NCBI GenBank assembly: GCA_039815375.1
Contig: JBCBZJ010000009.1
Location: 1-64,000, forward strand
Reading direction: 5' to 3'
DNA length: 64,000 bases
Source: Verrucomicrobiota bacterium
GTDB lineage: Bacteria > Verrucomicrobiota > Verrucomicrobiia > Opitutales > Coraliomargaritaceae
Positions 10,430-55,900 of this stretch are shown one piece after another; the first letter of the stretch is position 1, and each line of letters starts with the position of its first letter. The position numbers were made by a program, and so were the translations under genes. The notes beneath the pieces are model-generated. The model had not been told where the DNA came from. It made no database searches and saw only the letters and a program-made list of their open reading frames with translations.

Positions 10430-10450
10430 GGTCGTGCCCTTTTTGCTAAT

Positions 10451-11059
10451 TTAATTGAAGGTCCCTTTACGTTCCAAAGTCTGTATGGTTTTACCTTCCA
10501 ACTGAGTGAGGAAATGGTCCATCCCACTTCGTTGGGAACGGGCAAGGACAAGGAGAAACATAGCAGGGACAGCGATGACCAAGCCTGTTTGTGTAGTGAT
10601 TAGTGCTTCGGAAATGCCACCAGCTACCAAATCAAGTGAATTACCTCCATAGCTCACAGAGAGTCCGAGGAAAGTCGCGAGCATCCCCATAACAGTTCCC
10701 AAGAGACCAAGTAGTGGTGCTGTAGTCACTATTGCCGCCCCAAATCGTATCTGGCTGTCTAGTGGTGAGATTACCCGGTTTTTTAATATCCTGAAGCGCA
10801 AGCTTACGTCACTTTTCGATGTGACTCCATCTTGTGTGTATTGTATCATTTTGCCTATGATACCGTCGGAGTCTTCTGGTCTATCTACCCAGTGATTCCA
10901 TCTATTTTCGTCTTTCCTTAGCTCTTTAAGGCGAGCTGTATAAATCAATATCTGTATTATCGTGCCGTAAATAATGAAGGCTAGTATAGCCAGTAGGATC
11001 ATCAAGGAGCCTCCTGATGCCCAGATTCTGAAAACCGACTCATTAAATTCCTCTAACAT
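10451..11059 (-). CDS. exbB: MotA/TolQ/ExbB proton channel protein
   Basis: APLLGLLGTVMGM, GGISEALITTQTGL. Confidence 0.9.
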   Translation of the reverse strand: MLEEFNESVFRIWASGGSLMILLAILAFIIYGTIIQILIYTARLKELRKDENRWNHWVDRPEDSDGIIGKMIQYTQDGVTSKSDVSLRFRILKNRVISPLDSQIRFGAAIVTTAPLLGLLGTVMGMLATFLGLSVSYGGNSLDLVAGGISEALITTQTGLVIAVPAMFLLVLARSQRSGMDHFLTQLEGKTIQTLERKGTFN

Positions 11060-11083
11060 AATTATAGGCGCAATTTCTTAAAT

Positions 11084-12487: not shown

Positions 12488-12508
12488 AGAAATGTCTACC
12501 TTTCTAGG

Positions 12509-13261: not shown

Positions 13262-13288
13262 GGCATAAATTTAGCTCATTCCATGCCA
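13261..13288. promoter_or_regulatory. Two overlapping opposite-strand sigma54 promoters
   Basis: Plus TGGCATAAATTTAGCT (13261-13276); minus TGGCATGGAATGAGCT (13288-13273); both GG-N10-GC. Confidence 0.65.
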
Positions 13289-13322
13289 GCAGCCACAACT
13301 TTTCGGCAAATAATACTTTTTC

Positions 13323-15577: not shown

Positions 15578-15583
15578 CGGACG

Positions 15584-17029
15584 ATGGTAAACCTACTTCA
15601 GAAAATATCATTTATTCTTAATGACCGGCTTGTGAGCACTTCGGTTCCGGCAGGTATGCTGGTTTTGGATTTCCTCCGAAAAGAGGAACGATTGACGGGA
15701 ACAAAAGAGGGCTGCAAAGAAGGTGATTGCGGCGCCTGCTCCGTCATCTTCGGGGAGCTTAATGAGGACGGGACGGTTGGCTACACTCCGATGACAGCTT
15801 GCCTCATGCCTATGGGTGAGCTTGAGGGTAAGCATGTTGTGACCATTGAAGGTCTAAATATGGAAAAACTTTCGCCGGTTCAAAATGCGATGGTTGATTG
15901 CGGAGGTAGTCAGTGTGGCTATTGCACTCCGGGCTTCGTGGTATCGATGACGGCTGGCTTAATGGAGCCTAGAGTGCCGCTCGACAAAGAGGGAGTTTTG
16001 TATGCGATCTCTGGCAATCTTTGTCGCTGCACAGGCTACCGTTCGATTATTGAAGCCGGTGTGCAAGCAGTGGATTCTTTAGCAAGCCGATTAAATGGTC
16101 CGGATCGAATCAAAGAGCTTTGTGAAGCAGAAGCCCTGCCGAGTTATTTTATGACAATCCCCGAAAGGCTTGCGGAACTCAAGCCTGCGGTGAGCGATGG
16201 TTCAAAAATTGATACCGACCCGATCTATCTTGGTGGTGGAACCGACCTCTACGTTCAGCGTGGTGATGAGATTCCAGAGCTTCCGGTTGATCTCCTCAAA
16301 AAAGGGGAGGCGCCTGCACCCGTCTATACCGAGGATGGTATGTTGGTTTTGGATGCACGCATGAGTTTCGAAGATTTTGCAATGGACCGCTTGGTTCAAG
16401 AATCCATTCCTCAGGTTAAAGATTATAATTTACTGATTGCGAGCTGGCCAGTTCGCACGCGTGCGACGCTAGCTGGAAATATCTGTAATGCATCGCCTAT
16501 CGCGGATATGACTTGCTTGCTTCTCGCGCTTGAGACGGAGTTGACTATCTCCAATGCGGGACGTCTGCGGACCCTTCCACTCAAGGATTTCTTTCTCGGC
16601 TACAAGCGACTCAACAAAAAACCTGAAGAGCAAGTCGTTCGGATTTCTTTCCCTGTCTGTAAACCTCAGGAAAGCGTCAATTGGGAGAAGGTCTCGAAGC
16701 GGACATGGCTCGACATTGCGACGGTTAATTCCGCAGCGAGGATCGAGGTTGGTGAAGGTGTATTTTTGAGTGCAGGTTTTGCATTGGGGGGTGTGGCTGC
16801 GACACCGCTTTATTTAACTGAAGCCAGCAGTTATCTAAGCGGTAAAACTTTTGAGCCATCAACTGTTCTTGAGATGATTGACGTGGCACTTGAGGAATTT
16901 CAGCCGATCAGTGATGTTCGCGGTTCTGCCGATTACAAGCGTCTGCTCGCTCGCCAACTCTTAATCGCGCATTTCGAGAAGCTTTTTAAAGACGAACTCA
17001 AGATGGAGGAGATTTATGCGGCATTGTGA
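15584..17029 (+). CDS. xdhA: Xanthine dehydrogenase small subunit (2Fe-2S + FAD)
   Basis: GTKEGCKEGDCGAC, SQCGYCTPG, GNLCRCTGY, GGGTDL. Confidence 0.95.
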   Translation: MVNLLQKISFILNDRLVSTSVPAGMLVLDFLRKEERLTGTKEGCKEGDCGACSVIFGELNEDGTVGYTPMTACLMPMGELEGKHVVTIEGLNMEKLSPVQNAMVDCGGSQCGYCTPGFVVSMTAGLMEPRVPLDKEGVLYAISGNLCRCTGYRSIIEAGVQAVDSLASRLNGPDRIKELCEAEALPSYFMTIPERLAELKPAVSDGSKIDTDPIYLGGGTDLYVQRGDEIPELPVDLLKKGEAPAPVYTEDGMLVLDARMSFEDFAMDRLVQESIPQVKDYNLLIASWPVRTRATLAGNICNASPIADMTCLLLALETELTISNAGRLRTLPLKDFFLGYKRLNKKPEEQVVRISFPVCKPQESVNWEKVSKRTWLDIATVNSAARIEVGEGVFLSAGFALGGVAATPLYLTEASSYLSGKTFEPSTVLEMIDVALEEFQPISDVRGSADYKRLLARQLLIAHFEKLFKDELKMEEIYAAL

Positions 17030-36074: not shown

Positions 36075-38609
36075 ATGCGCTGCCTGCAAACTTCCCGTCT
36101 ACTTGTGGCTGGCATACTTTGCCTTAGCCAAACCTCACACGCTGAAGAGATCGTAAGCTCTATTTCGCAGGCGCCTGTCCCGTTCAATGAACTTGGCCCT
36201 GCGATTACTTTGAGCGACTCTGAGATCGAATCAATGACGGCTGCTCCTGGTCTTAAAAAGTTCAGCCCAAGTATCTCACCAAGGACGAGCAGCACCGTCG
36301 CCACATCCGGATTTACGATCAACCGGATGAATCGTAATGCAGTCGCTGCGGGCTATCAGCGCTACTATCTGGCTTCGGTGGACTTTGAATCAGTCACCGC
36401 CTGGACAGGTAGTGCGAGCCCCTGTAATGCGGGCACTGTCTCCTCCACCTTTCAGGACCATACGCTCAGGCGGATTAACTACTATCGCGCGCAGGCAGGG
36501 GTTCTTGCGGATATCTTCTTCACCACGGAGAAAAATGAGAAATCGCAAGAGGCTGCTCTTATGATGGCGGCTAACAACGACCTAAGCCACACTCCTCCGA
36601 CCTCGTGGCTATGCTACACTCAGGACGGTTTCGATGCTGCTTTTGCAGGGAATCTGGCCCTGGGATCCTATGGCCCCGAATCAATCGATCAGCTCATTGA
36701 GGACGACGGGAGTAACAATGCAGCGGTTGGGCACCGGCGCTGGTTTCTATTTTTACAAGCACAGGAAATGGGTAATGGATCCATTCCTTCAAGTGGCACA
36801 TTCCCTTACACCTACCCCGAACACCCGGATACTGATGTCGTCTGGGTGATTGGCGATTTCAAGGGAGCTCAGCCTGCGCAAGCAGTGGCGTGGCCCAACG
36901 ACGGCTATGTGCCATGGAATTTGGTCCCCAATGATGGAGAGAGCTTCCCCAGATGGTCTTATTCCTATCCTGGAGCAGACTTTTCAAGCGCTTCCGTCAC
37001 TATGACACTTGGTGGTAGCAATGTACCCGTAACACTTGAGCCGGTCACAACCGGCGCGGGGGACAATACGATCGTCTGGATTCCCTCTTCCGTGCCAAAT
37101 GTCACCCCAAGTTCTGATCAGACCTACCAAATCAATATTAGTGGGATAAGTGGACCGATTTCGTCTGCCAACTATTCCGTTACCTTGATCAACCCCAATA
37201 CGGTGAACGACCTTCCGGTAATCACCGGAACAAAAAGCCCTCCTGCAGGTGTCGCCACAACCTATCAATTTTCCTCTACCGATCAGGCTGAGGGCTACAC
37301 GCTAACTACATTTGAAGCCGCATCATCGGTTTGGACGGAAGGCGCGGAAGCCTCTCCGGTTCCAAATGTCGTTGATGATACAGATGCTTCTTACGACTTA
37401 TTAAGCAGCGCACAAAGCGCTACGGGGAGCCAATCATTTCACCTTGCGACGCCGGATTTTAATGAAGATCGCTTCTCGATTGACCGTCTAGTCGTACCTG
37501 ATTCGAGCAGTTCGATTACATTTAAATACCGGCGCCTCTTCATGCATCCCGATACGAAGCTGAGAGTTGAGCTTTCTGTCGATGAAGGTAGCTCATTTAC
37601 AACAGTGGAAACAATCGACGGTGGAAGCTCCTCGGTTAGTTCAGTCGATTGGGACCCCGGGTTTATCAACGCATCGATCGATGTCCCTGCAGACTTCGAG
37701 AATAAGACCATCACATTGAGATTCAGCATCGATCCGACAGGTGCAACGTTCCTTGGAAGCGATAACAATATAGGAGTCTATATCGACGACGTCTCCATTT
37801 CGAACACGACTGAACTCTCCAACCCATCGACACAGACGCTTGCCGCAGCCGCGACTTCATTTGATTTCACTCCCGGCAGTGTGGGCCAAAGTTACCGTCT
37901 CGTTCTACAGCCAGAGCTTGGAGGAAATCTTTTCGAATTCGGTCCCGGCTTGGACATTCAAGCGGTTTCTGCGCCTCCAGCACCTTCGATTAGCAGCTCA
38001 AGTACAGCGCAGGGTGTTCAGGGTGAAATATTTTCCTACATGATCACCGCTTCCGAAAACCCCACATCCTTTAATGCAACGGGTCTTCCGGCGGGCGCAT
38101 CGATCAATACCAGTACCGGTGAGATTACCGGAACGATTGCGGTCGGCGTGCACTCGGGAATCACGATATCAGCCACAAATGGCGGCGGGACAGACGATGC
38201 ACTACTCACGATTACTGTTCTTTCAGGTTACGACAACGCAGTGCAAAACCTCTATCCAGGCCTCGGCGCTTCATCTGCTGATGATGATGGCGACGGAGAC
38301 ACGAACCTGGAGGAGATCGCAATTCTTGGGCGGAATCCTCTGGTTTCAGACGCCAATGGCACATCGCAAATCTCCGCGTCAATTACGGCCCCCAATTTCT
38401 TCTTCACAATTATGAAATCGGGCATTGCCGGCATCGACTACCAAGCTGTCGGGAAGTCTTCACTTACCGATCCAACATGGACGACCAATGGCATTATCAT
38501 TCAGACGGATAACGCCTCAGAGCTTACAGTCTCCTACTCAACCACGGGCCAGAATAGCCATTTCCTGAGGTTCGAAATCACGCAAAACAACACCACCACT
38601 GCAGAATAA
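36075..38609 (+). CDS. Secreted CAP (SCP) domain protein with Ig-like (He_PIG) domain
   Basis: Signal peptide; RINYYRAQAG, LSH.PP, VGHRRW; ATGLPAGASINTSTGEITGT; DDDGDGDTN loop. Confidence 0.8.
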   Translation: MRCLQTSRLLVAGILCLSQTSHAEEIVSSISQAPVPFNELGPAITLSDSEIESMTAAPGLKKFSPSISPRTSSTVATSGFTINRMNRNAVAAGYQRYYLASVDFESVTAWTGSASPCNAGTVSSTFQDHTLRRINYYRAQAGVLADIFFTTEKNEKSQEAALMMAANNDLSHTPPTSWLCYTQDGFDAAFAGNLALGSYGPESIDQLIEDDGSNNAAVGHRRWFLFLQAQEMGNGSIPSSGTFPYTYPEHPDTDVVWVIGDFKGAQPAQAVAWPNDGYVPWNLVPNDGESFPRWSYSYPGADFSSASVTMTLGGSNVPVTLEPVTTGAGDNTIVWIPSSVPNVTPSSDQTYQINISGISGPISSANYSVTLINPNTVNDLPVITGTKSPPAGVATTYQFSSTDQAEGYTLTTFEAASSVWTEGAEASPVPNVVDDTDASYDLLSSAQSATGSQSFHLATPDFNEDRFSIDRLVVPDSSSSITFKYRRLFMHPDTKLRVELSVDEGSSFTTVETIDGGSSSVSSVDWDPGFINASIDVPADFENKTITLRFSIDPTGATFLGSDNNIGVYIDDVSISNTTELSNPSTQTLAAAATSFDFTPGSVGQSYRLVLQPELGGNLFEFGPGLDIQAVSAPPAPSISSSSTAQGVQGEIFSYMITASENPTSFNATGLPAGASINTSTGEITGTIAVGVHSGITISATNGGGTDDALLTITVLSGYDNAVQNLYPGLGASSADDDGDGDTNLEEIAILGRNPLVSDANGTSQISASITAPNFFFTIMKSGIAGIDYQAVGKSSLTDPTWTTNGIIIQTDNASELTVSYSTTGQNSHFLRFEITQNNTTTAE

Positions 38610-40403: not shown

Positions 40404-40910
40404 TGAGCTCACTTTTTTGGCCCACTTATTGTGATAGGTTTCCAAGCGGTGGATTCTTGGTATTTACTTGTGGTTTAGGTTGCGGTGGATCGCCTCTCTG
40501 GCGGAGGGAAGGCGTAGCCCGACCGAGGCCAGAGAGGCAGATAAGTTGCCTGACATACGCTTTTGGAGTGAGCAAGCCCAGAGAGCGATGCGGTCTTTCG
40601 TAGTTATGTAGATGCCGATAATGGCAAAGATGACGTAGGATTCACTGAGCGTGTAGATGAGCTCCCGGTTCAGGCACTCGCGGCGGAACGTATCGTTAAA
40701 GCTTTCCACATATCCGTTCTGCCAGTGACAGCCAGAATTGATGTAGATGCTCTTAATGCCCTTTTCTCTGAGCCATTGCTGGATCGCTAGATCAATAAAC
40801 TCGTGTCCATTGACCGAGCGGATATACTCGGGTGCGCCATGTTCCTCAATCGCTTTGATCGCTCGGTCGGAGTGGATGCAGTGGTATTCTTTGGTAAACC
40901 CATCGATCAT
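40404..40910 (-). mobile_element. Degenerate IS3-family orfB (integrase core) with right end
   Basis: GAPEYIRSVNG.EF (catalytic Asp of SDNG lost), WQNGYVESFN..FRRECLN; IR-like TGAGCTCACTTTTTTGGCCCAC at 40404. Confidence 0.8.
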
Positions 40911-41030: not shown

Positions 41031-43748
41031 ATGAAAAGCCGAAGAATAATACTAGTGGGTTGGGATGGTGCAGACTGGAAAGTTGCGCACCCGCTGATGG
41101 ATTCCGGAGAAATGCCGCAACTCAATAATATCGTCGAAAACGGGACGATGGGCAATCTTGCGAGCTTTCCGCCTTACCTTTCGCCGATGCTATGGAATAC
41201 CATTAGTACGGGTAAACACCCGCACAAACATGGGATATGTGGTTTTTCGGAAGTCGATGAAGCCAGCGGCAAGGTGCGCGCAATTTCCAGCCAAACACGC
41301 AAATGCAAGGCGATTTGGAATATCCTCACAGAGCAAGGGCGCAACTGTCACGTTCTCGGTTGGTTTGCCTCGCATCCTGCCGAGGCAATCAATGGAACTT
41401 GTGTCTCCGAAGCGTTCGCCCGGCCTAGCGGAAAAATCGGTGGTGACTGGCCCGTCCCTAAGGCCTCTGTTTATCCATCCGGAGAGGCGGAGGAGTTGGG
41501 TGAACTTCGAGTCGCACCCGAAGCCGTCGACCATGCGCTATTGGATTTTCTAGTGCCCCTTCACCGCGAAATTAAGCCACCCAAAGGGGCACGTGTCGAT
41601 CAGCTCCTTGTTCGCTTGGCCGAGCTTTACACCATTCATAATGCGGCAATAGGCATTCTTCAGTGCAATAAGGATTTCGATTTCCTCGGCGTTTACTACC
41701 ATTTCATTGACTGGATATGCCACGACTTCATGGAGTTCCATCCACCACGGCGCGATCATGTCGATGAAGAGCTTTATAAATGGTTCAATAATGTAGTGGC
41801 GCGCGCTTACCAGCTCCAGGATCTTCTTCTGCGCGATTTACTCAGCCATGCCGGATCTGAAGTTGCTGTGATGGTTGTTTCCGACCATGGCTTTCATAGC
41901 GACCATTTGCGCCCGGTGGTTACCCCCAATGTTGCTGCCGGTATCGCTGCCTGGCACAGGCCCTATGGTATTCTTGCTTCCGCTGGACCTGGTATCCGCC
42001 GCGACGCAGTCGTTCCGGGGGCGAGTTTGGCGGACATTACTCCGAGTATACTGCATTATCTGGGTTTGCCGGTCGGCCGCGATATGGATGGTCGTGTGCT
42101 CACGGAACTTTTCTCCGAACGTTATGAGCCGGACTATATCGATAGCTGGGAAACCCATCCGCCTGCTGGGCCGCTTCCTCCTGCCCTGGAAGAGTCCTGG
42201 GGTGAAGATGATGAAGCTGCTCTGCTAAAGCAATTTGAGGCACTCGGTTATGTCGATGTTGAATCGGTGCGAGGCGCCACGGCTACAGAGCAGACATCCA
42301 GTCAGAACGCCTGGAATCTTGGCGTTGCCCTGCGTTCTGCGCGGCTTGAAGCGGAGGCGCTGCCTTATTTGGAAGAAGCCTATTTCCATGCCCCTGAACA
42401 GGCACATCTGGCGAACCAGCTAGCTCATTGCCAACTCTCTCTAGGACTTCTGGATGCTGCCGAAGAAACGATCCAGACGATTCTCGACTATGGTGATGAT
42501 CGTCCTCGTGCAAATCTGCTGATGGCGAGTGTTGAGCATCAACGTGGTAATCTAAAAGCTGCCTGGGAACGGCTTGAGCGAGCGGAAAGCCTTGAGGAGG
42601 GGCGTGGGCTGCTAATGCTTCGGCGTGGCAGTGTGTTGATTTCCCTGGAAGAATTTCCCCGTGCTTTGTAGGCCTTTGACCGTGCTTTGGAATTCAATCC
42701 CGATGAGCCTCGATCGCATCTTGGCCGTGCTCAAACACTATTGCATCTCAATCGCCTCGATGAAGCCAGCGAAGCTGCCTGGCAGGCCATTGCGCTGGAG
42801 TACGATATGATTCAAGCGTATCTAGTCTTGGCCGTGATCAGCGAGGAACGGAAGGACTGGCCTAAAGCTCGGGAAAGCTATCAGCGGGCGCTGAAGATCG
42901 TTCCGAATGATACCCTGATTTTGCGCCGTCTGGCTGAAATCGCCGCCCATGACACACCCGGATACAAAGAAGATGATTTTATCCGGGAGCAGCACTTTCG
43001 TCATATGCTGCAGCAACAGCAATCAAAGACAGTTGAGCAAATCCAATGGCTGGAAAAAGCATCTGCCCGTCGCTTTGCCACCTGGAAAACTGCGCGGGAT
43101 GCCCGTCGCCATAAAAAAGAGCCGGTCAAGGTGCTTCGACCGAGCCAAGTCTCGGGACCGAGTTCCTCCGGCCGGACTTTTCTGATTGTTTCGGGGCTGC
43201 CCCGTTCGGGCACTTCGCTTATGATGAAGATGCTCCATGCGGGTGGTATCGAGCCCATGACCGACAGCCAGCGTCAAGCCGATGAGCATAATCCCGACGG
43301 CTACTTCGAATGGGAGGCGATCAAGCAACTCGCACAAAATCCCGACATCATTGAGCAGGCTGCAGGCAAGGCCGTTAAGGTAATCTCCCTGCTCCTGCCT
43401 TCGCTTCCTGCTAAACATCATTACAAGGTCATCTTCATGGATCGTCCGATCTCCGAGATTTCTCAGTCGCAGTCTGCAATGCTAGCCGCCGAAGGCCGGG
43501 AGCATCTTTCCATAGATGACACTTTACGGACCCTGACTGAGCATAAATCCATGATTGACCGGGTTATTGACAATTCACCGCAGTTTGAATGCTTGAGAAT
43601 AGATTATCGAGATCTGGTCCTGGGAGATGCTCAAGCTACGGTTTCCAGACTTGCTGCATTCATTGGGGAGGAACGCCTTCCCAATGCAAAAATGATGGCC
43701 TCCGTTGTGAAGCCCGAATTGTACCGAAAACGTCAGGTGGTCGATTAG
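41031..43748 (+). pseudogene. Alkaline-phosphatase/NPP superfamily + TPR + sulfotransferase fusion with in-frame TAG at 42669-42671
   Basis: GWDGADW, LSPMLWNTISTG, SDHGF; TPR array continuous across the stop; SGLPRSGTSLMM PAPS-binding loop. Both ORF halves share one frame. Confidence 0.8.
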
Positions 43749-43954
43749 AAGAGATTGTAAATTTCAATGTAGTTTCAGCTCGGTCAGGCCTAATCACTTT
43801 CGCGCTCTAACTATCAGGTCTTTCGGCAAAACGCTTGGAAAATTTTTAATTCATCGCATTAATTTTACCTTGACTAAAAACGTTAAGAATTCATCTCTGA
43901 AGTAGCTAATTAAATTTGAGTTAAACTAATCAATTTGCTACTTATAAAATTGCT

Positions 43955-44563
43955 ATGAAGAATCGTCTCTTACAATATTCGGCAGCTTCTGCTACAGGAG
44001 TTCTCGCTTCAACCAGTGCCTGGGGCAACATTCAATACAGTGGTCTCATTAATCTTTCGCTGAATTTCCAGGACGGAGATGAACTCTACATTGACATAGA
44101 TGGCATGTCTACTGTTGTTCAAGCTTCCGCACCTGCTGGTGCGGATTTTCGCTTGCAGGATTACGGTGGCGATGAATTCGATCTATATCGTCAGTCATCC
44201 CCCGGAGGCACCGTTAGAAGTACAGGATTCAGCATTCGCGATTTTAGCTCTGGTGAGACAATCGGTGTTGCCAATACATTCTCAGCTGGAGGGACCTTCT
44301 ACAACGGTGGCACCTTTGATAACAGTCTCGGCCAATATGCTGGGGTTGCTTTTGATTCCGGTTCTGGTATTCGTTATGGTTGGTTGCAACTCCAGTTCGA
44401 CCAAGTTGCGAATACCATCAACCTAGTTGACTTCGCCTATGATGACAGCGGTGCAGACATTGCGGCTGGAGCAGTTCCTGAGCCTGCTCATGCTCCGGTC
44501 ATTGCGGCTTTATTAGCCGGAAGTGCTGCTGCCTGCATGCGTCGCCAGCAAAAGAAGGCATAA
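43955..44563 (+). CDS. Small PEP-CTERM surface protein
   Basis: Signal peptide; YGWLQL..LVDFAYDDSG...AVPEP, hydrophobic helix, RRQQKK. Confidence 0.88.
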   Translation: MKNRLLQYSAASATGVLASTSAWGNIQYSGLINLSLNFQDGDELYIDIDGMSTVVQASAPAGADFRLQDYGGDEFDLYRQSSPGGTVRSTGFSIRDFSSGETIGVANTFSAGGTFYNGGTFDNSLGQYAGVAFDSGSGIRYGWLQLQFDQVANTINLVDFAYDDSGADIAAGAVPEPAHAPVIAALLAGSAAACMRRQQKKA

Positions 44564-44594
44564 TTCTCACTAAGAAGAAGATCTTTTTAATCAT

Positions 44595-44629
44595 AGCCTT
44601 GGGTTTTTGTTATTGCCCAAGGCTTTTTT
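44595..44629 (+). terminator. Rho-independent terminator
   Basis: AGCCTTGGG/CCCAAGGCT 9-bp stem followed by a T-run, about 30 nt after the stop. Confidence 0.8.
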
Positions 44630-44647
44630 GTGCACGGATATTTTCTC

Positions 44648-44917
44648 ATGAAGCAAAACGATTTTGTGATACGTGCTCCATGGCCCGATGAATTGCCTCG
44701 CCTGAAGTCCTTTATGGGAGGGTTTCAGCTAAAGGAGGAATCAATTATTCGCATTGCACTGGCTGGCTCCTGGGAGCGAGTCATCGGTGTGGCCATCCGA
44801 GAGGAAAGTGATCGTGCTTCAAGTCAAATTTGGTTGAAGCTTCGCCCTAGATACATGGGAAGCACGATTGAACAGCAGCTACGTGAAAGCGTCTCTGCGG
44901 TCAAAGCAACCGACTGA
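44648..44917 (+). CDS. Small hypothetical protein, possibly a truncated GNAT fold
   Basis: FVIRAPWPDELP start and LRPRYMGSTIEQQL resemble GNAT beta1 and a degenerate motif A. Confidence 0.4.
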   Translation: MKQNDFVIRAPWPDELPRLKSFMGGFQLKEESIIRIALAGSWERVIGVAIREESDRASSQIWLKLRPRYMGSTIEQQLRESVSAVKATD

Positions 44918-44923
44918 TTGCCG

Positions 44924-45454
44924 TTAAGCAGTCACAAATGTTTTTTTGGTGGTCATCCCTTCTCCATGCCACTCAAGATAAAGGTGCGTTTCCCGATCTT
45001 CCAGTAAGTAGAACCCCTGTCGCAAATAAAGACGGACCGCATTGCTGAATTTTTCCACGTGTAAACGCAAAGGCCGTTTGCCTTGAACACTGAAAGACTT
45101 GAGGGTTTCTATGGCAGCGGTTCCGATTCCTCTTCCCCGACATTCAGGCAATAGAGAGATATCGGCCAGACGAATTTCGTCGCGGTTGTGAAACCATAAC
45201 ATTCGACCTACAGATTGATCATCCAGCTCAATAATCACATCCGATTTTTCTTCATCCAACTGTCGGTAATGCTCGCTATGCGCATGAAACTGTTGATCAA
45301 CGATTTTTTGCGCTTCACCTGCATCCCAATGCCAGAGGCGCAAGCGCTCGCTGACCGTTAATGCAAACAAATGAGTCAGAAAGGGCTGATCATCATCATC
45401 TCGAGGTCGAAGTTTTAAAACCGCATTCACCGGGGTATTTTGGAGTAGATGCAA
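44924..45454 (-). CDS. GNAT family N-acetyltransferase
   Basis: DISLLPECRGRGIGT acetyl-CoA motif; LRLHVEK..NAVRLY.RQGF. Confidence 0.9.
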   Translation of the reverse strand: MHLLQNTPVNAVLKLRPRDDDDQPFLTHLFALTVSERLRLWHWDAGEAQKIVDQQFHAHSEHYRQLDEEKSDVIIELDDQSVGRMLWFHNRDEIRLADISLLPECRGRGIGTAAIETLKSFSVQGKRPLRLHVEKFSNAVRLYLRQGFYLLEDRETHLYLEWHGEGMTTKKTFVTA

Positions 45455-45536
45455 TCAGGCATAAAGACAGAATGCAGGTCTATGAACTAAACACCTTGCC
45501 TCTATTCCCGAAAAAATGGTTCGGGCCAATGAAGTA

Positions 45537-46133
45537 TTACGAACGTGGCGGGAAGATTCCCTGTAGGGAAATCACATAGTTCATTGCCTGGAAAGGTGGT
45601 AAGATGGAAAAAGGTACGCTGCCTCCCCTGTTATCCACTGTCACAGTGCCCGAAACACTTAAGTCCACGCCACCCAGACCAGCTGTAGGGGCGCTGGTAG
45701 AATACAATTTCACACGTTGATCGCTGGAGTCGCGACCTGAAGCGAGGTAATTGCCATTGGGTGAGCGGTTATCGGCGGCGTCATCCACAACCATCACAGA
45801 TACTCCGGAGGATGGATTAAGGTAAAATTCAGCGTCATGATGGTGTGAAGGCATATGAGCGATATCAAGCGTTACATCTTCGCGTCCGCCAACTTCACCA
45901 ATAATCGTACGCTGATAAACAGGGCTGCTTGGATTGTAACCCATGAAGGAACGGCCTCGGCAGTCGGGTAGTCCGAAGGTGCTACGGCCATCGCCGCCAT
46001 ACATCGTCCCGAGTAGCGAGAACAGAGCCTGGTTCTGGTTGACGGCCATGACTTGGCCTTGGCACATGGCCCAGTCGCGCGGAGCAAAATTGCATCCCAT
46101 TATAGTGATTTGAGAAATGAATGGTTCTGGCAT
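45537..46133 (-). CDS. Phage tail-collar domain protein (microcystin-dependent protein-like)
   Basis: NFAPRDWAMCQGQ, NQALFSLLGTMYGGDGRSTFGLPD.RGR, MPSHHH, C-terminal ISLQGIFPPRS. Confidence 0.92.
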   Translation of the reverse strand: MPEPFISQITIMGCNFAPRDWAMCQGQVMAVNQNQALFSLLGTMYGGDGRSTFGLPDCRGRSFMGYNPSSPVYQRTIIGEVGGREDVTLDIAHMPSHHHDAEFYLNPSSGVSVMVVDDAADNRSPNGNYLASGRDSSDQRVKLYSTSAPTAGLGGVDLSVSGTVTVDNRGGSVPFSILPPFQAMNYVISLQGIFPPRS

Positions 46134-46175
46134 GGTAAGTAGTAACGTTTTGAGATTTAGAGAATGTGGAAATTA

Positions 46176-46772
46176 CTATGAACGAGGGGGATAAACACCA
46201 TCAAGTGCGATGACATAATTCATCGACTGGAAAGGAGCCAGGCACTGAAAACTTTGGCTGCCGCCGTTTGCTTGTGTACTAACAGAAGCTTCTATACTGA
46301 GATCCACCCCACCAAGCGTAGCGTTCGGGGTAGCCGATGAGTAGGCTTTAACACGTTGATCACTGCTGTCACGAGCTGAAGCCAGAACATTGCCATTCGG
46401 AGAGAGATCACCTGCCGCGTCATCATATGTGTTGATCCGGGCATAACTCGCTGGATCTTTAGTAAAGCTGGCTGTGTGTTTATGTACGGGTAAGTGGAGT
46501 TGGTTTAATTGAACATTTTCATAGCCTCCGATCTCACCGATAATGGTGCGTTCGTAGGGAGCAAAATTAGGATTGTAGCCGGTGAAGACTCGCCCTTTGC
46601 CATCCGGCAGCCCGAAGGTAGAGCGGCCATCACCGCCATACATGGTGCCAACTAGAGAGAAGAGTGCTGTATTTTGGGTAATTGGCAAGAGCTGGCCCTG
46701 ACAGGTCGACCAAGTTCTGGGTGCATAATTGCATCCCATAATGATGATTTCGGAGATGAATGGGTCTGCCAT
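46176..46772 (-). CDS. Phage tail-collar domain protein (paralog)
   Basis: NTALFSLVGTMYGGDGRSTFGLPD.KGR, LPVHKH, IALDGVYPPRS. Confidence 0.92.
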   Translation of the reverse strand: MADPFISEIIIMGCNYAPRTWSTCQGQLLPITQNTALFSLVGTMYGGDGRSTFGLPDGKGRVFTGYNPNFAPYERTIIGEIGGYENVQLNQLHLPVHKHTASFTKDPASYARINTYDDAAGDLSPNGNVLASARDSSDQRVKAYSSATPNATLGGVDLSIEASVSTQANGGSQSFQCLAPFQSMNYVIALDGVYPPRS

Positions 46773-46824
46773 AATTAGCGTATCGGTTTTGAGTTAAGGG
46801 GAACGTATTCTAAAATTTTTTGAA

Positions 46825-47139
46825 TCAACCAAAGCAGGCCTGATAAACAGTGCCATCTTCATTCTGCTCAAGCGGCTCCATGAAAACGTATCGCTCTTCC
46901 ATGTGCTCGTTACTTAAGGCAAATGAGCCGGTCCAGGATGGATGGTCTTTGTTCTTATCCAGAAAAAACAAACTGAAAGGCTGTTTACGTATTTCTTTGT
47001 AATTGAAGTCGCGCTCTGTGTGCGGCTTAACTTCGCGTAATTCTAGCTCAACTGTATCTCCGTCTACCTGAGCCTTGAAGATAGTTCCTTCAAGCCCTTC
47101 GAAGTTATTAAGATTTAGCTCCTGATCCGTAGTAATCAT
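46825..47139 (-). CDS. DUF6916-like small protein
   Basis: F...GTIF, LELREV, PFSLFF, VFMEP, YQACF pattern; position before tail-collar genes. Confidence 0.7.
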   Translation of the reverse strand: MITTDQELNLNNFEGLEGTIFKAQVDGDTVELELREVKPHTERDFNYKEIRKQPFSLFFLDKNKDHPSWTGSFALSNEHMEERYVFMEPLEQNEDGTVYQACFG

Positions 47140-47581: not shown

Positions 47582-48397
47582 TCATTTATCGCAGTAGTCT
47601 GCCGTGCTGACGATACGTTCAATGACCAGCTTTGAGTCCGCTTTGATAATATATTCGCTCATACCCACGTGGTAGGGCGGGTTGCCCCAGTCATAGGTGT
47701 AGCCGAGTTGCGTCCATGGCCAGCCGGGGCTATCCGTATCTCCGCAGATGTAATACTGGTGAGCGCGTGTTGTGTTCATCCATTTACGGTGCTCGGGTGT
47801 TACGTCGCCGGGGAAATCGAGCTCAGCTTGGGAATCGTCTACTTCGGCGTCAGGACTCGGGCGGAATAGATCTGCGGGTCGGACCCATAACTCGACAAAG
47901 TAACTTTTGTCATCGTTTGGAGGCAGACCGATGAGTTGACGCAGTCGCATATCCAAATCGTCCCCGCCAAATCCCGGCTTAGAGCAGAGGTCCTGTAGGT
48001 AAGGACAGGGAGATACCCATATCAGGTGCGTGCCATTGTTATAAAAGCCATCTGGGCCGTTCTGGTAGTATTGAACGTCCGAGGCCGATATCCAGGTCTC
48101 GACAAGCACGTAGTCCTGTCCGCTGAATGTTTTCCAGAGCAGGTCCTCGTTTGTTTTGCTAATGGAATTGAGCGTGTCGACGATTTCTTTCGGAGTGGGG
48201 TTGGACGCATCATCCAAGGCATCTGCGTAGGCTTGGTCGATATTCGCGAGAACGCTTTCGGGAGCAACACTGGGTATTGGATAGGTTGCGCTCTTGCTTG
48301 CAACAGGGCTTGCCGGAGCTTTGGCCTTTCCGGTTGTGTAGCATCCGCTGATCAGAGAGGCCGTAGTAAAGAGGACGATTGGCAGTGACTTTTTCAT
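47582..48397 (-). CDS. Hypothetical lipoprotein
   Basis: Lipobox LISGC; RLRQLIGLPP, DLFRP, PWTQLGYTYDWG blocks. Confidence 0.75.
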   Translation of the reverse strand: MKKSLPIVLFTTASLISGCYTTGKAKAPASPVASKSATYPIPSVAPESVLANIDQAYADALDDASNPTPKEIVDTLNSISKTNEDLLWKTFSGQDYVLVETWISASDVQYYQNGPDGFYNNGTHLIWVSPCPYLQDLCSKPGFGGDDLDMRLRQLIGLPPNDDKSYFVELWVRPADLFRPSPDAEVDDSQAELDFPGDVTPEHRKWMNTTRAHQYYICGDTDSPGWPWTQLGYTYDWGNPPYHVGMSEYIIKADSKLVIERIVSTADYCDK

Positions 48398-48691: not shown

Positions 48692-51600
48692 TTAAGTGAC
48701 CATTGCTCTCATATTTTCGATTTCCTGGTTGCGCAGAGCGGTTGCTAGGTCGGTCACATGTGGGGCGGTCATCATGGAGAGGTGCGTGCCGGGAACTTCG
48801 ATAACGTTGACGGTAGCCGGGCTATAGTCCTGCCAATTTAGTTTGTGGTTTTGGCTTGAGCTCATTTCGCCCAGATCGACATCACTCTCTTGCGCTTTAT
48901 AGAGTGTGATTGGCAAATCTACCGATAAGGCGTCAGGCTGATATTGTAAGGTTGCCATCGCGTTATCTCTGTAAACTTGGACGTATTTCCCGAGTGCTCT
49001 GGCGTTGATATGATCCGAGAGAACTTTGTGGCTGAGCAGGCGATTATGCAGTAAAGTGATCTGTTGGTCGTGGTTGAGTTTACGAAGGCCTTCGATGCTT
49101 AGCTGCAAGTCGATGTGATACAACTTCTGCATCCGTGTGACGATATGTATGAGCCAGGTGGCGGTGTCCCAACTTTCGTATGGGCGCTCGTGCATAGCGG
49201 ATGGGGCGGGGTTATCGAGAATACCTAATTGCTTGATATTTCCCGCAGCTTCCGTGCCCAGCTGGCGCACCATCTCATAGGCGACGAGGCCTCCATAGGA
49301 ATGGCCGATCAGGGTGTAGGGTTGGCGGGCAAAGGGAGCTTGCTTCAGTTCATCGAGGTAGAAGGCAGCAGTCGCCTCGATGCCGGATTCTTCAGGTTTT
49401 CGTTCGGATAGCCCGACACCCTGCAATCCCCAGAGGGTGTAGTCGGGCTGTAGCAAGCGTGCGAGTTCATTGTAGTAGAGGATACTGCCCCCTGCGCCCG
49501 GAATGCAGACAATGGGCTCGCCCTCTGTGTTCGGAAGCAGGGGAGTCAGGATGGACTCGATCGAGTCTTCTGCAGTGCTAATCCACTTGGCTTGCTGCGA
49601 TATGGTCGTGTTTGAGAGCACTTCCTGCAAGCTGAGTTGTGCTTCCAGACGTTCTTCGATGGTTGCGAGCAGTTTCACTGCAAGGAGTGAGTGACCTCCG
49701 GTCTCGAAGAAGTTATCATGAATGCCGACGGTATCGACTTCGAGAGTTTCTTTCCAAATGTCCTGTAGAGTTCGCTCTAAGTCTGTCTGCGCTTCTGCGA
49801 AGCCTGTCTCGGTTCCGTTGGAAAGATTATCAAGCAGTTGTTTGATATCGGCTTTGCCATTGGGGTTAAGCGGTATCCGTTTTACTGGATGGATGAGTCC
49901 TGGGACCATTTGTTCCGGGAGTTGTTTTCCGGCCCAATCACCAAGCAATTTTGGTAGTTCTTGCAGGTTCTGGTCTGCTTTGGGAACGACGAAAGCGACT
50001 AATTGTGCATAGTCAGTTCCAGCTCGTTTGACGGTAGCAACTGACTGCTTTATCCAGCCGGACTCCTGGAGTGCGGTTTCGACTTGAAGCGGCTCGATGC
50101 GAAAGCCTCGTAGCTGAATTTGCCGATCGCTGCGACCAAGCAATTCAAGTGTTCCATTGGGTTGCTGGCGTGCGAGGTCTCCGGTCTTGTAGGCTCGCGG
50201 GCCGTTGCTGCCCGGCAATTGGACAAATGCTCGCTGGTTTGCTTTAGAATCCCCATGATAACCTGAACTTAAGCAATCGCCTGCGATGTAGACTTCTCCG
50301 GTTTCGCCTTTAGATACAGCCTGTAAATCTGTGTCCAAAATATAGATACCGGTGTTGGCAATGCATTGGCTGAGAGGAAGCGTCGCCGGGAGGGCGCCGT
50401 TGTCGTCGAAAGCTTGCAGTGGATGACTGAGAACCCCGATCGTAGCCTCAGTCGGTCCATAGTGATTGTAGATTTGGCAATGTGGTGCGAGTTTTCGTAT
50501 CTCTCGAATCCACCCGTAGTCGGCTCCTTCGCCGCCAAGGATAAGGCTTTTGCGAGGGAAGAGTTCGGTGCTGGTCTGGGTTTGCAGCAGGGTTTTCCAA
50601 TGGGAGGGGACGATCTTTAGATAATCGACTGCATTATCCTGCATGAAAATGGCAAATCTACGCGCATTGAGGCGGTCCGGTTCAGGCATGACATATAAAG
50701 TGCCACCGCTGACGAGAGAGAGGAAAAGCATGGTGTTGCCGAGATCTGCCGCGAGTGTTGAAACGAGGGCAAAGCGTGCACGCTCCTCTATGCTGAGGTC
50801 GGGCATCATGCTCAGGATATAGTTGGCGACGGACCGGTGGGAGATCGGGACTGCCTTGGGCCGTCCGGTTGAGCCGGAGGTGAAGATAATGTAAGCGGTG
50901 TCTTCTAAACGAACAGCGACAGGAGTGTCAGTAGCTTTTGGCCGGGAGAGCAGGTCATCGACTGTAAACCTAACAGCGGTTATCTCCAGGCTGGTTAGTG
51001 ACTTGGGTGCTTCCGAATCCACGAGCACGGCTAATGCCCCTGCGGTTTGAACCATATATTGCAGAAGGTCTGCGGGGTATTGCGATGGGTCCAGAGGGAG
51101 ATAGGTCGCACCGATTTTGAGGACTGCTATAATACTACAGAGCGCTGCGTCGCTCGACTGGTTGCCGATGGCAATCACATCGCCAGTTTGGAATCCCCGT
51201 TGCGATAGGTTTTGGGCAAGTTCATTCGCGGCTTGATCGAGTTTCGCGTAGCTGAGCGTCTTGATGCCGTTCGAGTAGGCGGGGCTGTTTGGGTGTTCCA
51301 CGACTTGTTGCTCAAAGAGTCTGGTCAGGCATTGGTCCGCCGCGATTTCTATGGTTGGGCCTTGCAGGCAAGGTTCCGGTGTAACGATCTCCGGTGGCGC
51401 GGTCCGTTGCCAGTTATTCAAGTCTGAAAATCGTGTTTGCGGATCGTTTGCAAAAGTCCTGAGCAGCATTTGATAGTCCTCTGCGAAGTGGCGAATGGTG
51501 GACTCTTCAAACAGATGACAGTTGTAGCCGAAGGTTGCCTGCAATTGGCCGTTATCTTCTAGCAGTGTCAGCGTTAGGTCGAATTTCCCATCGGCCTGCC

Positions 51601-52910
51601 GGAAATCGAAGGTTTCGAGGTCGCTCTGTTTCCCTTGCTTTTGCTTTATATTGGTAATCGCTTTTCGAGTCAGGAAATTGAAGCTGATGTCGAAGAAAGG
51701 TGAGCGATTCGGTTGCCGCTCCGGCTTCAATTTCTCGACGAGCCAAGGGAAAGGCGCGTCGGCGTGATCCAGTGCTTCGCGGCTCTGCCGGGCGCTCAGG
51801 CGTAGCCACTGATCGAACGTATCCGTTGCTTCGGTTTTGACGGAGCGTATAATCACCGGATTGACGAAGTAGCCAACGGTCGAGGCATATTCGGCACGTC
51901 CACGTCCTGCTGAAAAAGAGCCCAGGATCAGATCGTCACGTCTGCTGTAGTCATGTAGTTGATAAGCAAATACAGAAAGAAAAAGTGAGAATTCGGAAAT
52001 ATTCTCTTCGCGTGCTATCCCGGAGAGCTGCGAGTGGATTTCTTCAGGGACGATGCTTCGGATAGAAAGGCCCTCAAAGGTGAGGGTCGGAGGCCGGGGG
52101 TGGTCTTGTGCAGGGAGTGTGATGGGGTGTGGTGGATCTGCCAGATTCTCCTGCCAGTAGGCGAAGTTTGCCGCGCCCTCGGGGCTGCGGAGCAATTCCT
52201 GCTCTTCGCGGGCATGATCGAAATAGGAATGTTTTTCCGGTTTGAGCTGCGGTTTATTGCCCGAGACAAGAGCATTTAGAATAGTATGCAGTTCCTGGCG
52301 TAGCACCTCTCGGGTACCATCCGTCACAGATGATGTGATGCATGGTGAAGAGCACGGTGCTGGGAGTGGTCCCGTCCTCGGAAAAGACCCTGAAGCGCAC
52401 GGCTGCACTGGTTTCCAGATCGAACGGTGCTTCGTGTGCTTTGCGGGCCGCTGCATCGCGTTCGTTCATCGTGCATTGAGACAGATCGCTCCAGGCGCAA
52501 TCCATGACTGCCGGATCGGTGCGCTGCTGAATCGGCTTCGTGGCATGAAGTGGAAACCGTGTGGAGAGCATGGGGTGGCGATCCAGGAGAATCCTGAAGC
52601 TCTCGATCCAGTTTTCATAGCTTGCACCGAGCGGCGAGGTCAGAGGGATCGATTGATTATAGGCGCTGCTCTCGGGGGCGAGTTTCCAGATGTACCAGAG
52701 GGCACGTTGGCCATAGGTCAGTGGATAGGCCGAAAGCTGGTACGGCTCGTTTTTTAGGATATGGAGCAGTTCGGATTTATACTCACGGATACGCGGTAGA
52801 ATCTCCTCCGTTGGCACGCTTTCCGGTGCCCTGAACTTGAGGCGATCCCCTTCCATCCAGAAGGACCAGCGCTCCAGGCTCAAATCGATAAAGAATTCAA
52901 GTGGACTCAT
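48692..52910 (-). pseudogene. NRPS (TubC-type docking-C-A-T-TE) with a 1-nt frameshift at about 52315
   Basis: HHIICDGW in ORF 52254-52910; YIIFTSGSTGRPK, YGPTE, YKTGD, GGHSL, GHSYGG in ORF 48692-52456. Confidence 0.88.
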
Positions 52911-55900
52911 ATTTCACCTTCTACCCACTGCGTTGCTGCACCTGCCGCGGAAAGTTGTAGCACTTCCGATTCTTTCTCGGTGGAATCGAGCGCTTCGGCG
53001 ACTAGTTGGATCAATCCCGACAGCTCCAAATCCTGAAGGTGTGGTGTCTGCTTCAATTCGATGAATAGGTCTTGTTGTAGCTGGATGCGAAGCGCCATAC
53101 TCATGATCGAGTCCATGCCCTGGGAGTTGAAATTTGCGCCTGGATCGACCGCGGAGGTAGATGAAAGACCAAGAATCGCAACGAGCACTTTGCGCAGATA
53201 GCGTTCGAGACGCCGGGAGCGTTCTTCGTCGTCAGCGCTGGCATTGAGCCATTCCAGGACGGACTCGGTCGACTCTTCGTTTTTGCGGTCCTTTGTCGCG
53301 CTCCATTGAGTTTCGGTGCAGCACATTTGCTCGAAGTAGAGGACCGGTTGCATGGAGCTGGTCTCACAAATGAGAATATCGACACTGAGCTTTGTCTCTG
53401 CGAATGTGTTCGGTGATTCGCGAACCTGAACGTGGTAGTCGCCCTGGGGTTCTGCATCGCCGAAGAGGATACTTGCCGCTTCTTCGGGGACAAAGAGCTT
53501 CCCCGGTGCTTTTTGTAAGATAAAAGCTCCCAGGGCTTGTGATGCAGCATCGAGCAAGGTGATCCACGGTCGATCGGGGTGGCTATCGGATGCAGGCGCA
53601 GGAATCGAGATTCTGGTCTGGATTGCTTCCGGCGAGCTGATGAGCTGCTGCATTGATTGCAGAGCAGGCGCAGTTTGAAAGCCTATCCGCTGGGAGCTTT
53701 CGTAATAAGTGTTCCCTTCCGTTGTCGTTTGCCCAGAGGCTGGTGTTGGCTTTGGCCATTGCTCCTGCGTATTCCAGGTAGCTGGCGAAGCAGGAAGATG
53801 GGCGGATGCGATGGTCTGCCAGCCAGCTTCCGGAGTGGGGCGCGCGAAAAGCGTTGCTTCAGCTGTTTCCGTATTTGGCTGGGTGATTTCGGTATGCAGT
53901 GTGCAGCTCTCTTCCGTTAACTCGACGGCATTAAGGAGGGTAAGGTCACGAATTTCGTAGGTTGCGCTTGTCTGGCAGACTTCCGCTGCCTTGCGAAGAA
54001 TGGCTAGAATGGCAGCATTGGGAAGGTAGGTCTTCCCTTGTATTTGCTGCTGCTTCCAGAATTTTGGCTGTGATCTGGAGCAGTGGGATTCAAAACGGCG
54101 GGAGTTCGCGGTGCCTGGCAGCGTGAGCGCTTCACCAAGCAGTGTTCGGTTGTTGATTGCTTTTCCGTTCGAACGACTCTTTGCCCTATCAGGTTCGATC
54201 CAGTAGCGTTCTTTTGCGAAGGGATAGCTGGGAAGAGTGGTTCGTTTGCCGGGGTGATGACGATGATAATTCTGCCAGTTCGGTAGATATCCTGCCTCGT
54301 AGAGCTGGCCGAGTGCTTCGATGATGTGATGGTCATCGTTTGTCCTCGGGTGCAAGCTGCTGACCATGCTTATTTTGCTGCACTCGGGTATGCCTTGAGC
54401 CAGATTGAGCAGGGTAGGCTTGGGTCCGAGTTCCAGAAACAGGCCACAGCCGTTTGCGACTACCTGTTGGAGGGAGGCTTCGAAGCGAACCGTGGCACGT
54501 ATCTGCTCGACCCAGTAGTCCGGTGTGGCGAAGGCTTGGCTTTCGAGTTGGCCGGTCATGCTGGAGATAACCGGGAGCGTGGGGGAATGGTAGCTTGTCT
54601 CTTGAGCGATGGTGCGGAATGGCTCAAGCATAGGATCCATCAACTCGGAATGAAATGCGTGTGAGACATGTAGTCGGGTGCATGCGACGGAACGTGCTTT
54701 CAGCAATTCGGATACTTGCTCGACTGTGCGAGTCAGACCTGAGAGCACGACGCTGTTTGCGGTGTTGACTGCTGCGACGGAGAGCTGCAGCTGGCTGTCC
54801 GACAACAACTCGAGAATAGTCGCTTCATCGGTTTCAACCGAGAGCATGGTGCCATTTTCTGGCAGAGACTGCATCAGTTGGCCACGATGTCGAACCATAC
54901 GCAGAGCGTCCTCCAGTGAGAAGACACCGGCAAGGCAGCAGGCGGCATACTCGCCGATGCTATGTCCGAGAAGGGTATCGGGTTCGATGCCCCAGTGGGC
55001 CCAAAGTTTGCCGAGTGCGTACTGTAGCGCGAAGAGGCAGGGCTGCGCGAATTCAGTGCGATGAATGCTTGTGCTTTCTGCAGACTCGTTTTCCCCACTT
55101 CTCCGAATCGTCTCGAGTATTGAATATCCCTGAGATTGCGCGATGGCCTCGCATGCGTCGATTGTGGCGCGAAAGATAGGCTCTGTTTGATACAGTCCGT
55201 ATCCCATTTTTGGATACTGGGAGCCCTGTCCTGTAAAAAGGAAGGCGAGTTGTGGTCGGTATGGTTCCACTCTTTTTGCGGGTGCTTCCATCTGCTGACC
55301 GATTCGTTCCGCTGCTTCCTTACGTGAACGGATCGCATAGGCTTCGCGATAGGCAAAATGAGAACGCCCGAGATTGCTCGTCTGGCAGATGTCTTCCAGC
55401 GGCTTGCCAGAGTGCGAGAGGAAAGCCCTGTAGCGTTCGCGCATTTGATTGAGGGCACTCGGTGTCTTCGCGGAAAGGGTAAGTAAATGAGAACGGCGGC
55501 GCAGCTCGGACACATGATCCGCCGAGGCATTGGGGATGCCCCCTCTATGCTCCGATAAAATAACGTGTGCGTTGGTGCCACTGATGCCAAATGAGCTGAC
55601 GCCGATGGACTGATTTGGCGCAAAGGTATCCCAGCATACGCTCTCCTGACATACCTCGATGGGTAGTGTTTCCCAATCGATATGGGGGTTCGGTTGCTCG
55701 AAGTGAAGTCCGGGCAGGAATTGGCGTTTCTGTAGCTGGAGTGTCGCCTTAATCAGGCCCGCTATGCCTGCGGCTGCCTCGAGGTGACCAATGTAGCTTT
55801 TGATCGAGCTGACCAGAAGCGGCGATGAAGAGCTATGTGAACGGGCGAAAATCTCTCCGAGGGCCTGAGCCTCGATGGGGTCACCGAGGGAAGTGCCGGT

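Follow-up and report, generated by a model that had tools for sequence, protein, structure and literature searches.

What are two genes with the collar domain of phage tail fibres doing in a bacterial genome, next to a gene for an acetyltransferase? The question is raised by a stretch of DNA of 64,000 nucleotides (nt) from a Verrucomicrobiota bacterium of the order Opitutales, family Coraliomargaritaceae (GenBank assembly GCA_039815375.1, contig JBCBZJ010000009.1, positions 1 to 64,000 of the forward strand; hereafter the window). According to the open reading frames (ORFs) and Pfam, the window contains a tight minus-strand string of genes for, from 5′ to 3′, a DUF6916 protein, Collar protein A, Collar protein B and a GNAT acetyltransferase, with intergenic gaps of 52, 42 and 82 nt. 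Convergent with the string, on the plus strand, is a gene for a PEP-CTERM-like protein of 202 amino acids (aa), so that the stretch of interest covers about 43.9–47.2 kb. This is the layout that the original prediction, made from the sequence alone, had described, and it is borne out. The genes of the string are as follows.

46825-47139, minus strand: DUF6916 protein, 104 aa, without a signal peptide, first in the string (Pfam PF21880, E 8.5e-16)
46176-46772, minus strand: Collar protein A, 198 aa, N-terminus MADPF, HKH motif (Pfam Collar, E 9.9e-23)
45537-46133, minus strand: Collar protein B, 198 aa, N-terminus MPEPF, HHH motif (Pfam Collar, E 2.5e-24)
44924-45454, minus strand: GNAT acetyltransferase, 176 aa, listed with a TTG start, last in the string (Pfam Acetyltransf_1, E 4.2e-09)

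A Widespread Cassette

The string of the window is a reduced member of a widespread cellular cassette. A peptide-pattern scan of the genome collection yielded relatives in 569 of 601 matched stretches. Culturable carriers are on record, among them Herpetosiphon aurantiacus DSM 785, Dyadobacter alkalitolerans DSM 23607, Mesorhizobium erdmanii USDA 3471 and Tritonibacter mobilis. A set of 88 loci, comprising the 80 best collar loci (L022-L101), seven loci from the window's phylum picked by DUF6916, and the window itself, was analyzed by searching all ORFs with profiles and clustering them. The 80 loci were chosen by the collar alone and belong to nine phyla, as judged by record title; several of the misses among them are due to cut contigs. 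DUF6916 is present in 58 of these 80 loci and a GNAT of one and the same cluster in 60, both being found together in 53, while 31 loci contain a giant surface protein. In the whole set, DUF6916 occurs in 66 of the 88 loci, and BLAST clustering places the window GNAT together with those of 68. A gene-neighbourhood analysis had been proposed as one check on the original prediction, and it shows that DUF6916, collar and GNAT co-occur far beyond chance, outside viruses.

The usual cassette contains three collar paralogues in a fixed order (72 tandem runs with three collars were found), whereas the window has two sister collars that belong to a single-copy clade. The two share a dedicated GNAT, DUF6916, a non-viral context and a surface protein as a neighbour. 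The gene order DUF6916-collar-GNAT of the window is also seen in L023 and L024, each with one collar, and short forms with the same three kinds of genes in other arrangements are found in L015, L020, L021 and L047. A paralogue of DUF6916 with a Tat-like signal is encoded in 24 of the 66 DUF6916 loci. The giants are cadherin/Big_9/beta-helix proteins, while those of Bacteroidota have Ig repeats and a tail of the type IX secretion system (T9SS). The earlier assertion that such genes lie beside surface proteins holds, these being cadherin/Big_9/beta-helix giants, T9SS giants or small PEP-CTERM proteins.

A genome of the same order as the window (G264) encodes two giants with signal peptides, of 1721 and 1579 aa, that carry three fused Collar domains each (L141, 1170-6335, minus strand, and L143, 2848-7587, minus strand), with RCC1, InlB-B, Ig, fn3 or TIG repeats alongside. 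These fusions point to three collar units functioning as a set outside the cell, within a large surface protein. A protein of 510 aa in another genome (G080; L140, 1822-3354, plus strand) is made of three collar units and is devoid of a signal peptide.

The distribution of the cassette is patchy: DUF6916 was detected in 9 of 401 genomes of the window's phylum and in none of the 26 genomes of its family. The GC content at 38–48 kb of the window is 0.45–0.51, below that of the flanks. The low GC content, a transposase fragment and the patchy distribution fit horizontal acquisition.

Collar Proteins

The two window proteins match the Collar domain with scores of 85.4 and 80.3 bits as compared to the Pfam cut-off of 24. 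The domain begins at residue 8 of 198, and there is no shaft region. An HxH motif had been claimed for both proteins and is present, as HKH in Collar A and HHH in Collar B; across the loci it is kept in 245 of 246 collars. In the alignment of Collar A with the short tail fibre tip of T4 (1ocy, E 0.047), the aligned region extends through the HxH site. The tips of T4 gp12 (PDB 1OCY, 1PDI) and of gp37 share with the window proteins the succession of a Collar domain and an HxH metal site. Unlike the T4 proteins, the window collars are the tip alone, 198 aa in length, with no shaft, virion or phage genes and with GNAT and DUF6916 as partners. A trimeric 'knitted' metal-binding fold is said to have been described for T4 gp12 by Thomassen in 2003.

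Collars A and B are 61–63% identical in the alignment and are sister paralogues (support 100). They lie inside a clade of eight rows (support 89) that contains only single- or double-copy collars, its other hosts being Pseudoalteromonadaceae metagenome-assembled genomes (MAGs), Algihabitans, a myxobacterium and an Ardenticatenaceae MAG. The nearest relatives are the collars of L023 and L024. The window's genome (3.56 Mb, 99.89% complete) holds no Collar genes other than these two.

Of the 236 collars with a recognisable start, 183 have Ala, 42 Ser and only two Pro at residue 2; Collar B starts with Met-Pro. Residue 3 follows the gene order, being E, Q and D in turn. The collars vary in their central part. 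No signal peptide is seen by eye at the N-termini of the window collars, in agreement with the earlier description, which to this extent stands.

Phage Origin Versus Cellular Context

The cassette is cellular and non-viral. The genome gave no match to Phage_sheath_1, Baseplate_J or the HK97-type Phage_capsid, which, for these three families, extends to the genome what had been noted earlier, namely that capsid, sheath and baseplate genes are missing. A search for the gp19 tube family was uninformative, as it matched no control genome. When the viral collection (2.9 million contigs) was searched with the peptide patterns that found the cellular relatives, 260 stretches matched and 0 of them were relatives. 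These results also bear on the question whether the collars might belong to a tailocin or prophage encoded elsewhere: neither a sheath, baseplate-J or capsid gene nor viral relatives were found. The best phage matches to the collars are minor tail proteins of actinophages, 28–32% identical.

Of the tail-family matches that PHROGs gave for 45 window ORFs, just those of the two collars hold up. The ORF at 5716-7029 (minus strand) was labelled a tail protein (PHROG 27398, E 2e-130), but Pfam identifies it as a xanthine/uracil permease, and the label is misleading. A second 'tail protein' label covers only 80 residues of an 844-aa secreted protein. PADLOC, applied to seven proteins, produced 0 matches.

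GNAT and DUF6916

Among solved structures, the GNAT family profile is closest to N-terminal acetyltransferases (6wqb at 4.4e-16, RimI and Naa50). GNAT and DUF6916 are fused as one protein in L062, as found with Pfam, and a second, independent GNAT-DUF6916 fusion of 269 aa (P0017) is 42% identical. These fusions indicate that GNAT and DUF6916 act together, and it is the fusions that suggest a role of DUF6916 as an adaptor or chaperone. A prediction of the GNAT and DUF6916 complex, made with alignment inputs and no controls, gave a score of 0.00 versus a mark of 0.32 and weighs neither way. In P0037, P0044 and P0045 the cassette-type GNAT is joined to an Asp/Asn beta-hydroxylase domain (PF05118); one of these three fusions represents 17 sequences on 5 contigs.

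DUF6916 belongs to an unstudied domain family, and a literature search found no paper on it. The window protein is the only copy in the genome and has no RR motif. A word-index search with it matched only itself, while a full HMMER search gave 11 matches at E ≤ 0.001. The AlphaFold2 (AF2) model has a pLDDT of 88 and displays a six-strand beta-barrel. Its best VIA fold matches are the N-domains of MrkH and YcgR, with Z of 8.2–7.8 and a root-mean-square deviation of 2.5–2.7 over 85–88 residues. Foldseek with the same model against the PDB returned nothing at E ≤ 0.001, the weak rows being Hcp, VgrG, Dit and PilZ barrels.

The PEP-CTERM-like Protein

The gene on which the string converges, and the elements between the two, are as follows.

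43955-44563, plus strand: PEP-CTERM-like surface protein, 202 aa, with a C-terminal VPEP, a hydrophobic stretch and a basic tail
44595-44631, plus strand: terminator-like hairpin with a T-run, 3′ of the PEP-CTERM-like gene (inverted repeat of 9 nt, 100% complementary)
44630-44917, plus strand: 95-aa ORF of no family, left unmentioned in the original prediction, between the terminator and the GNAT stop

The identification of the small gene as PEP-CTERM is tentative. The VPEP, the hydrophobic stretch and the basic cluster at the C-terminus are read by eye, and homologues of the protein carry canonical PEP-CTERM tails. The protein itself, however, reached no PEP-CTERM model, either in Pfam (PF07589) at E ≤ 1 or in NCBIfam (TIGR02595) at E ≤ 0.01. 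Its Atlas neighbours are PEP-CTERM clusters of 200–220 aa, which is a lead only. Within its own genome the protein has a single weak match (E 6e-4) and lacks a close paralogue, and its AF2 model, built on a four-row alignment, is unusable (pLDDT 37). The terminator ascribed to the gene is borne out as a pattern: a 9-bp stem (44595-44603/44616-44624) and a 12-nt loop are followed by a T-run. A consensus scan for promoters and terminators gave a number of sites not above that in shuffled sequence, and it missed the hairpin because of its loop limit.

The PEP-CTERM gene probably belongs to the cassette. In a genome of the window's phylum (G327, 6.2 Mb), the sole homologue of the 202-aa protein, 35% identical over 171 residues and equipped with a canonical tail, lies within the collar cassette there, 24 nt past the gene for the giant adhesin. 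With a strict tail pattern, 10 other loci were found to have PEP-CTERM ORFs within 1.5 kb of the collars. In L028, L029, L038 and L040 these ORFs are on the same strand, 11–148 nt upstream, the distance in L042 being 335 nt; the passengers of the ORFs belong to at least four unrelated families besides the window's own. L023 and L024 have a divergent PEP-CTERM gene of 211–212 aa beside the cassette, and it is the sorting tail alone that matches between these proteins and the 202-aa protein. Genomes G189 and G378 have no homologue of the latter. The window's genome encodes three exosortases (PF09721 above the cut-off) and has 19 PEP-CTERM model matches; with so few of the latter, a chance adjacency of the PEP-CTERM gene and the string is unlikely.

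The 95-aa ORF gave no Pfam, PHROGs or PADLOC match, and it has no relative in its own genome or in the 87 other loci. It was considered as a relative of GNAT and rejected, since it is unrelated both to the GNAT profile and to a GNAT-like ORF beside the homologue of the 202-aa protein in G225.

The Phosphodiesterase-TPR-Sulfotransferase Gene

On the far side of the PEP-CTERM gene lies a gene that had been counted as part of the module.

41031-43748, plus strand: phosphodiesterase-TPR-sulfotransferase gene (Pfam), split by an in-frame TAG (42669-42671); a neighbour, judged to be outside the cassette
41031-42671, plus strand: its Phosphodiest and TPR part (Pfam)
42687-43748, plus strand: its TPR and Sulfotransfer_3 part (Pfam)

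The TAG splits one reading frame, full-length relatives being single proteins of about 900 aa, and reflects a recent nonsense mutation or else an error in the assembly. When the stop is read through as X, the gene encodes a full-length member of this family, with 1361 matches, the best of which is 85% identical over 905 aa. An intact orthologue, 89% identical, is encoded in G165, a genome with neither DUF6916 nor Collar, and no relative of the window's enzyme is present in the 87 other loci. The inclusion of the gene in the module is accordingly given up, and we judge it to be no part of the cassette.

As to the more general claim that collars recur with sulfotransferases, a sulfotransferase does occur beside collars in 6 of the 88 loci (L015, L018, L020, L021, L086 and L022), four of which come from the window's phylum and have one or two collars, but it belongs to a different family, the profile of which does not detect the window's enzyme; the two are unrelated. 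Likewise, of the idea that a collar system assembles on an exosortase-anchored protein, the link to PEP-CTERM is supported by G327 and the 10 other loci, while the sulfotransferase drops out of the module. In two of the six loci, L018 (G306, 181-16395) and L020 (G336), Collar, DUF6916 and GNAT are found amid genes of a tailoring type, i.e., NTP_transf_5, asparagine synthase, PqqD, an Asp/Arg hydroxylase, two sulfotransferases, methyltransferases and VKOR-DsbA. These clusters look like protein- or peptide-tailoring clusters.

Related Systems

Several free-standing or cellular collar proteins have been reported. In the virophage DSLV2, three small tandem PF07484 proteins co-purify as a heterotrimer of about 16 nm and bind Synechococcus cells (PMC12724248). 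DSLV2 and the window are alike in having free-standing small PF07484 proteins in tandem. The DSLV2 tail proteins are viral, comprise three distinct paralogues and dock on a capsomer, whereas those of the window are a pair of sister paralogues encoded in a cellular cassette.

RhiB, encoded in the rhiABC(D) operon of Rhizobium leguminosarum, is a COG4675 'microcystin-dependent protein' that carries a collar domain (PMC6969944, PMC13133039). Set side by side by description, RhiB and the window collars are both cellular, non-phage collar-domain proteins. The rhi context consists of rhiA, rhiC and the quorum-sensing genes rhiI/rhiR, and the passages on it name no GNAT or DUF6916 there. The window ORFs scanned at 36–48 kb include no match to the LuxI or LuxR family.

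A fusion of PilV with a collar in a pilus shufflon places the domain on a cellular surface fibre (PMC9881135). Unlike the window collars, it is described there as fused to a pilin, varied by DNA inversion and without GNAT or DUF6916. A PF07484 protein of Ruegeria pomeroyi has been recorded in marine exoproteomes (PMC4949626), and COG4675 proteins turn up in soil metaproteomes (PMC5579227); collar proteins outside phages are common enough to be seen in both. The literature search found no paper describing the cassette, or PEP-CTERM together with a tail collar.

A phage fibre tip in a cellular setting is already known; what is new here is the minimal form and the link to exosortase. The cassette ties collar proteins to a private acetyltransferase, a DUF6916 protein and sorted surface proteins, and so provides concrete, testable hypotheses for non-phage collar-domain proteins such as RhiB and COG4675, which have been without a known function for decades. 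The two-collar minimal form is the simplest version to express and assay, and it connects the cassette with the exosortase system, few substrates of which are known to have a role.

Proposed Mechanism and Alternative Explanations

We lean, with slightly less than even confidence, towards the view that the window contains a reduced, horizontally acquired collar cassette that builds a surface binding knob linked to a sorted surface protein. What is observed is which genes are present, how they are conserved and fused, and that their context is non-viral; that the collars form trimers, are exported and have a role in binding, and which protein is acetylated, we infer. The two collars would fold like the receptor-binding tip of T4 gp12/gp37 into a metal-bound trimer held by the HxH motifs. 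The alignment of Collar A with gp12 and the trimer of DSLV2 are the reasons to see them as metal-bound trimers that may recognise a surface glycan. Because both collars are recent duplicates of a single-copy lineage, the trimers here should consist of one collar only (homotrimers) or of A and B mixed, in contrast to the A-B-C heterotrimer predicted for the usual three-gene cassette. The dedicated GNAT would acetylate a conserved component of the cassette. Since GNAT is conserved while the surface partner varies, the conserved parts are its likelier targets, and the likeliest one may be the Ala/Ser N-terminus of the collars after removal of the methionine. The DUF6916 beta-barrel may partner GNAT as an adaptor or assembly factor. 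The finished knob would be a tip at the cell surface that binds sugar or lipopolysaccharide, tied to a sorted surface protein, which here would be the adjacent 202-aa PEP-CTERM protein and elsewhere the giant adhesin.

A number of points weigh against a surface knob. The Met-Pro start of Collar B is a poor fit to N-terminal acetylation, and the GNAT match to solved N-terminal acetyltransferases involves mainly the acetyl-CoA-binding half (profile positions 77–153), which is generic. Similarly, the match of DUF6916 to PilZ-N domains (Z of about 8) is at a level that VIA rates as common. The collars are devoid of a signal peptide that would take them to the surface. Of the parts that point to export in other loci, the Tat-signal DUF6916 paralogue has no counterpart in the window's genome, and whereas a giant adhesin adjoins many cassettes, the window has no member of the giant-protein clusters, its putative partner being a small PEP-CTERM protein. 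The PEP-CTERM gene of the window is a separate, convergent transcription unit, and in G225 and G267 the homologues of its product are encoded on contigs other than those with the cassettes. Finally, a broken neighbouring gene and a remnant of an insertion sequence (IS) nearby make local decay possible.

A bolder version of the surface-knob view has a rather low chance of being right. The cassette would then be a modular plug-in knob derived from phage fibres, folded with metal in the cytoplasm, capped by GNAT and DUF6916 and mounted on the sorted surface protein of the lineage concerned, be it a giant adhesin, a T9SS protein or a small exosortase substrate. If this is true, the window represents a minimal homotrimeric form anchored by the 202-aa PEP-CTERM protein, and PEP-CTERM proteins are docking sockets for a separately made binding head.

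The missing signal peptides of the collars and of the window DUF6916 would also suit a complex that stays in the cytoplasm or periplasm and binds an internal ligand or precursor, with GNAT and DUF6916 tailoring the collars and the PEP-CTERM gene a coincidental neighbour. Consistent with this are the separate transcription unit and terminator of that gene, the homologues in G225 and G267 that are unlinked to the cassette, and the 49 of 80 collar-selected loci that have no giant neighbour. Such an internal complex is nevertheless rather unlikely, in view of the three fused collars inside signal-peptide giants, the Tat-signal DUF6916 paralogues in 24 of 66 loci, the collar protein recorded in an exoproteome (PMC4949626), and the single-copy homologues of the PEP-CTERM protein that adjoin cassettes in two genomes. 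That exoproteome finding is also in line with a released, lectin-like antibacterial or interaction protein, i.e., a tail-fibre-tip 'bacteriocin' with GNAT as an enzyme of self-protection or maturation. The patchy, seemingly horizontal spread (DUF6916 in 9 of 401 genomes at the level of the phylum and 0 of 26 at that of the family), the variable central region of the collars and the quorum regulation of RhiB in Rhizobium (PMC13133039) point in the same direction. A released protein remains an unlikely explanation, given that the conserved set includes no lysis, export or immunity-type gene, that PADLOC had 0 matches on seven proteins, and that the constant pairing with anchored surface proteins suits a mounted tip better than a free toxin. 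One could also imagine a decaying remnant that lost its third collar, Tat partner and adhesin after transfer and no longer works; the mere two collars and one DUF6916, the premature stop in the adjoining gene, the transposase fragment at 40464-40910 and the lower GC content at 38–48 kb are in line with this. We consider decay improbable, however, since all four ORFs are intact with conserved motifs kept, the collars at 61% identity are diverged yet unbroken, and the short architecture is kept in L023 and L024, with other short forms in L015, L020, L021 and L047.

The full model of the original prediction, in which the collars assemble on the PEP-CTERM protein and this protein is acetylated by GNAT and sulfated by the phosphodiesterase-TPR-sulfotransferase, appears very improbable. 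It draws on the adjacency of the genes, on the different sulfotransferase family in 6 of 88 loci and on the tailoring enzymes (hydroxylase, methyltransferase) that accompany some cassettes, but the window sulfotransferase gene is broken, unrelated to the recurring family and found without collars, and with GNAT conserved and the surface partner variable, the partner is unlikely to be the substrate. It is hardly conceivable, in turn, that the collars are fibre proteins of a tail whose remaining genes (those of a prophage, tailocin or contractile injection system) lie in another part of the genome: although Collar is a phage domain and PHROGs tail families match both collars, no sheath, baseplate-J or HK97 capsid gene was found in a genome that is 99.89% complete, no relatives were detected in viral contigs, and the partners of the cassette are cellular.

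Other Genes of the Window

Directly upstream of the string, a lipoprotein of 271 aa and of no family (lipobox LISGC) is encoded at 47582-48397 on the minus strand. It is followed at 48692-58516 (minus strand) by an ORF of 1254 aa, a putative non-ribosomal peptide synthetase module as judged from the translation and one PHROG match of unknown function, and by an ORF of 1869 aa. This neighbourhood of the lipoprotein, the 1254-aa and the 1869-aa ORF is not seen at the related loci. On the other side, a 148-aa fragment of an rve_3/transposase gene at 40464-40910 (minus strand) adjoins the broken phosphodiesterase-TPR-sulfotransferase gene. The 844-aa secreted protein mentioned above, encoded at 36075-38609 on the plus strand and of no Pfam family, is the nearest large secreted protein, its end being 6.3 kb from the string. 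Its residues 637–716 match PHROG tail-protein family 8763, which also holds a collar region, as well as the giant of L017.

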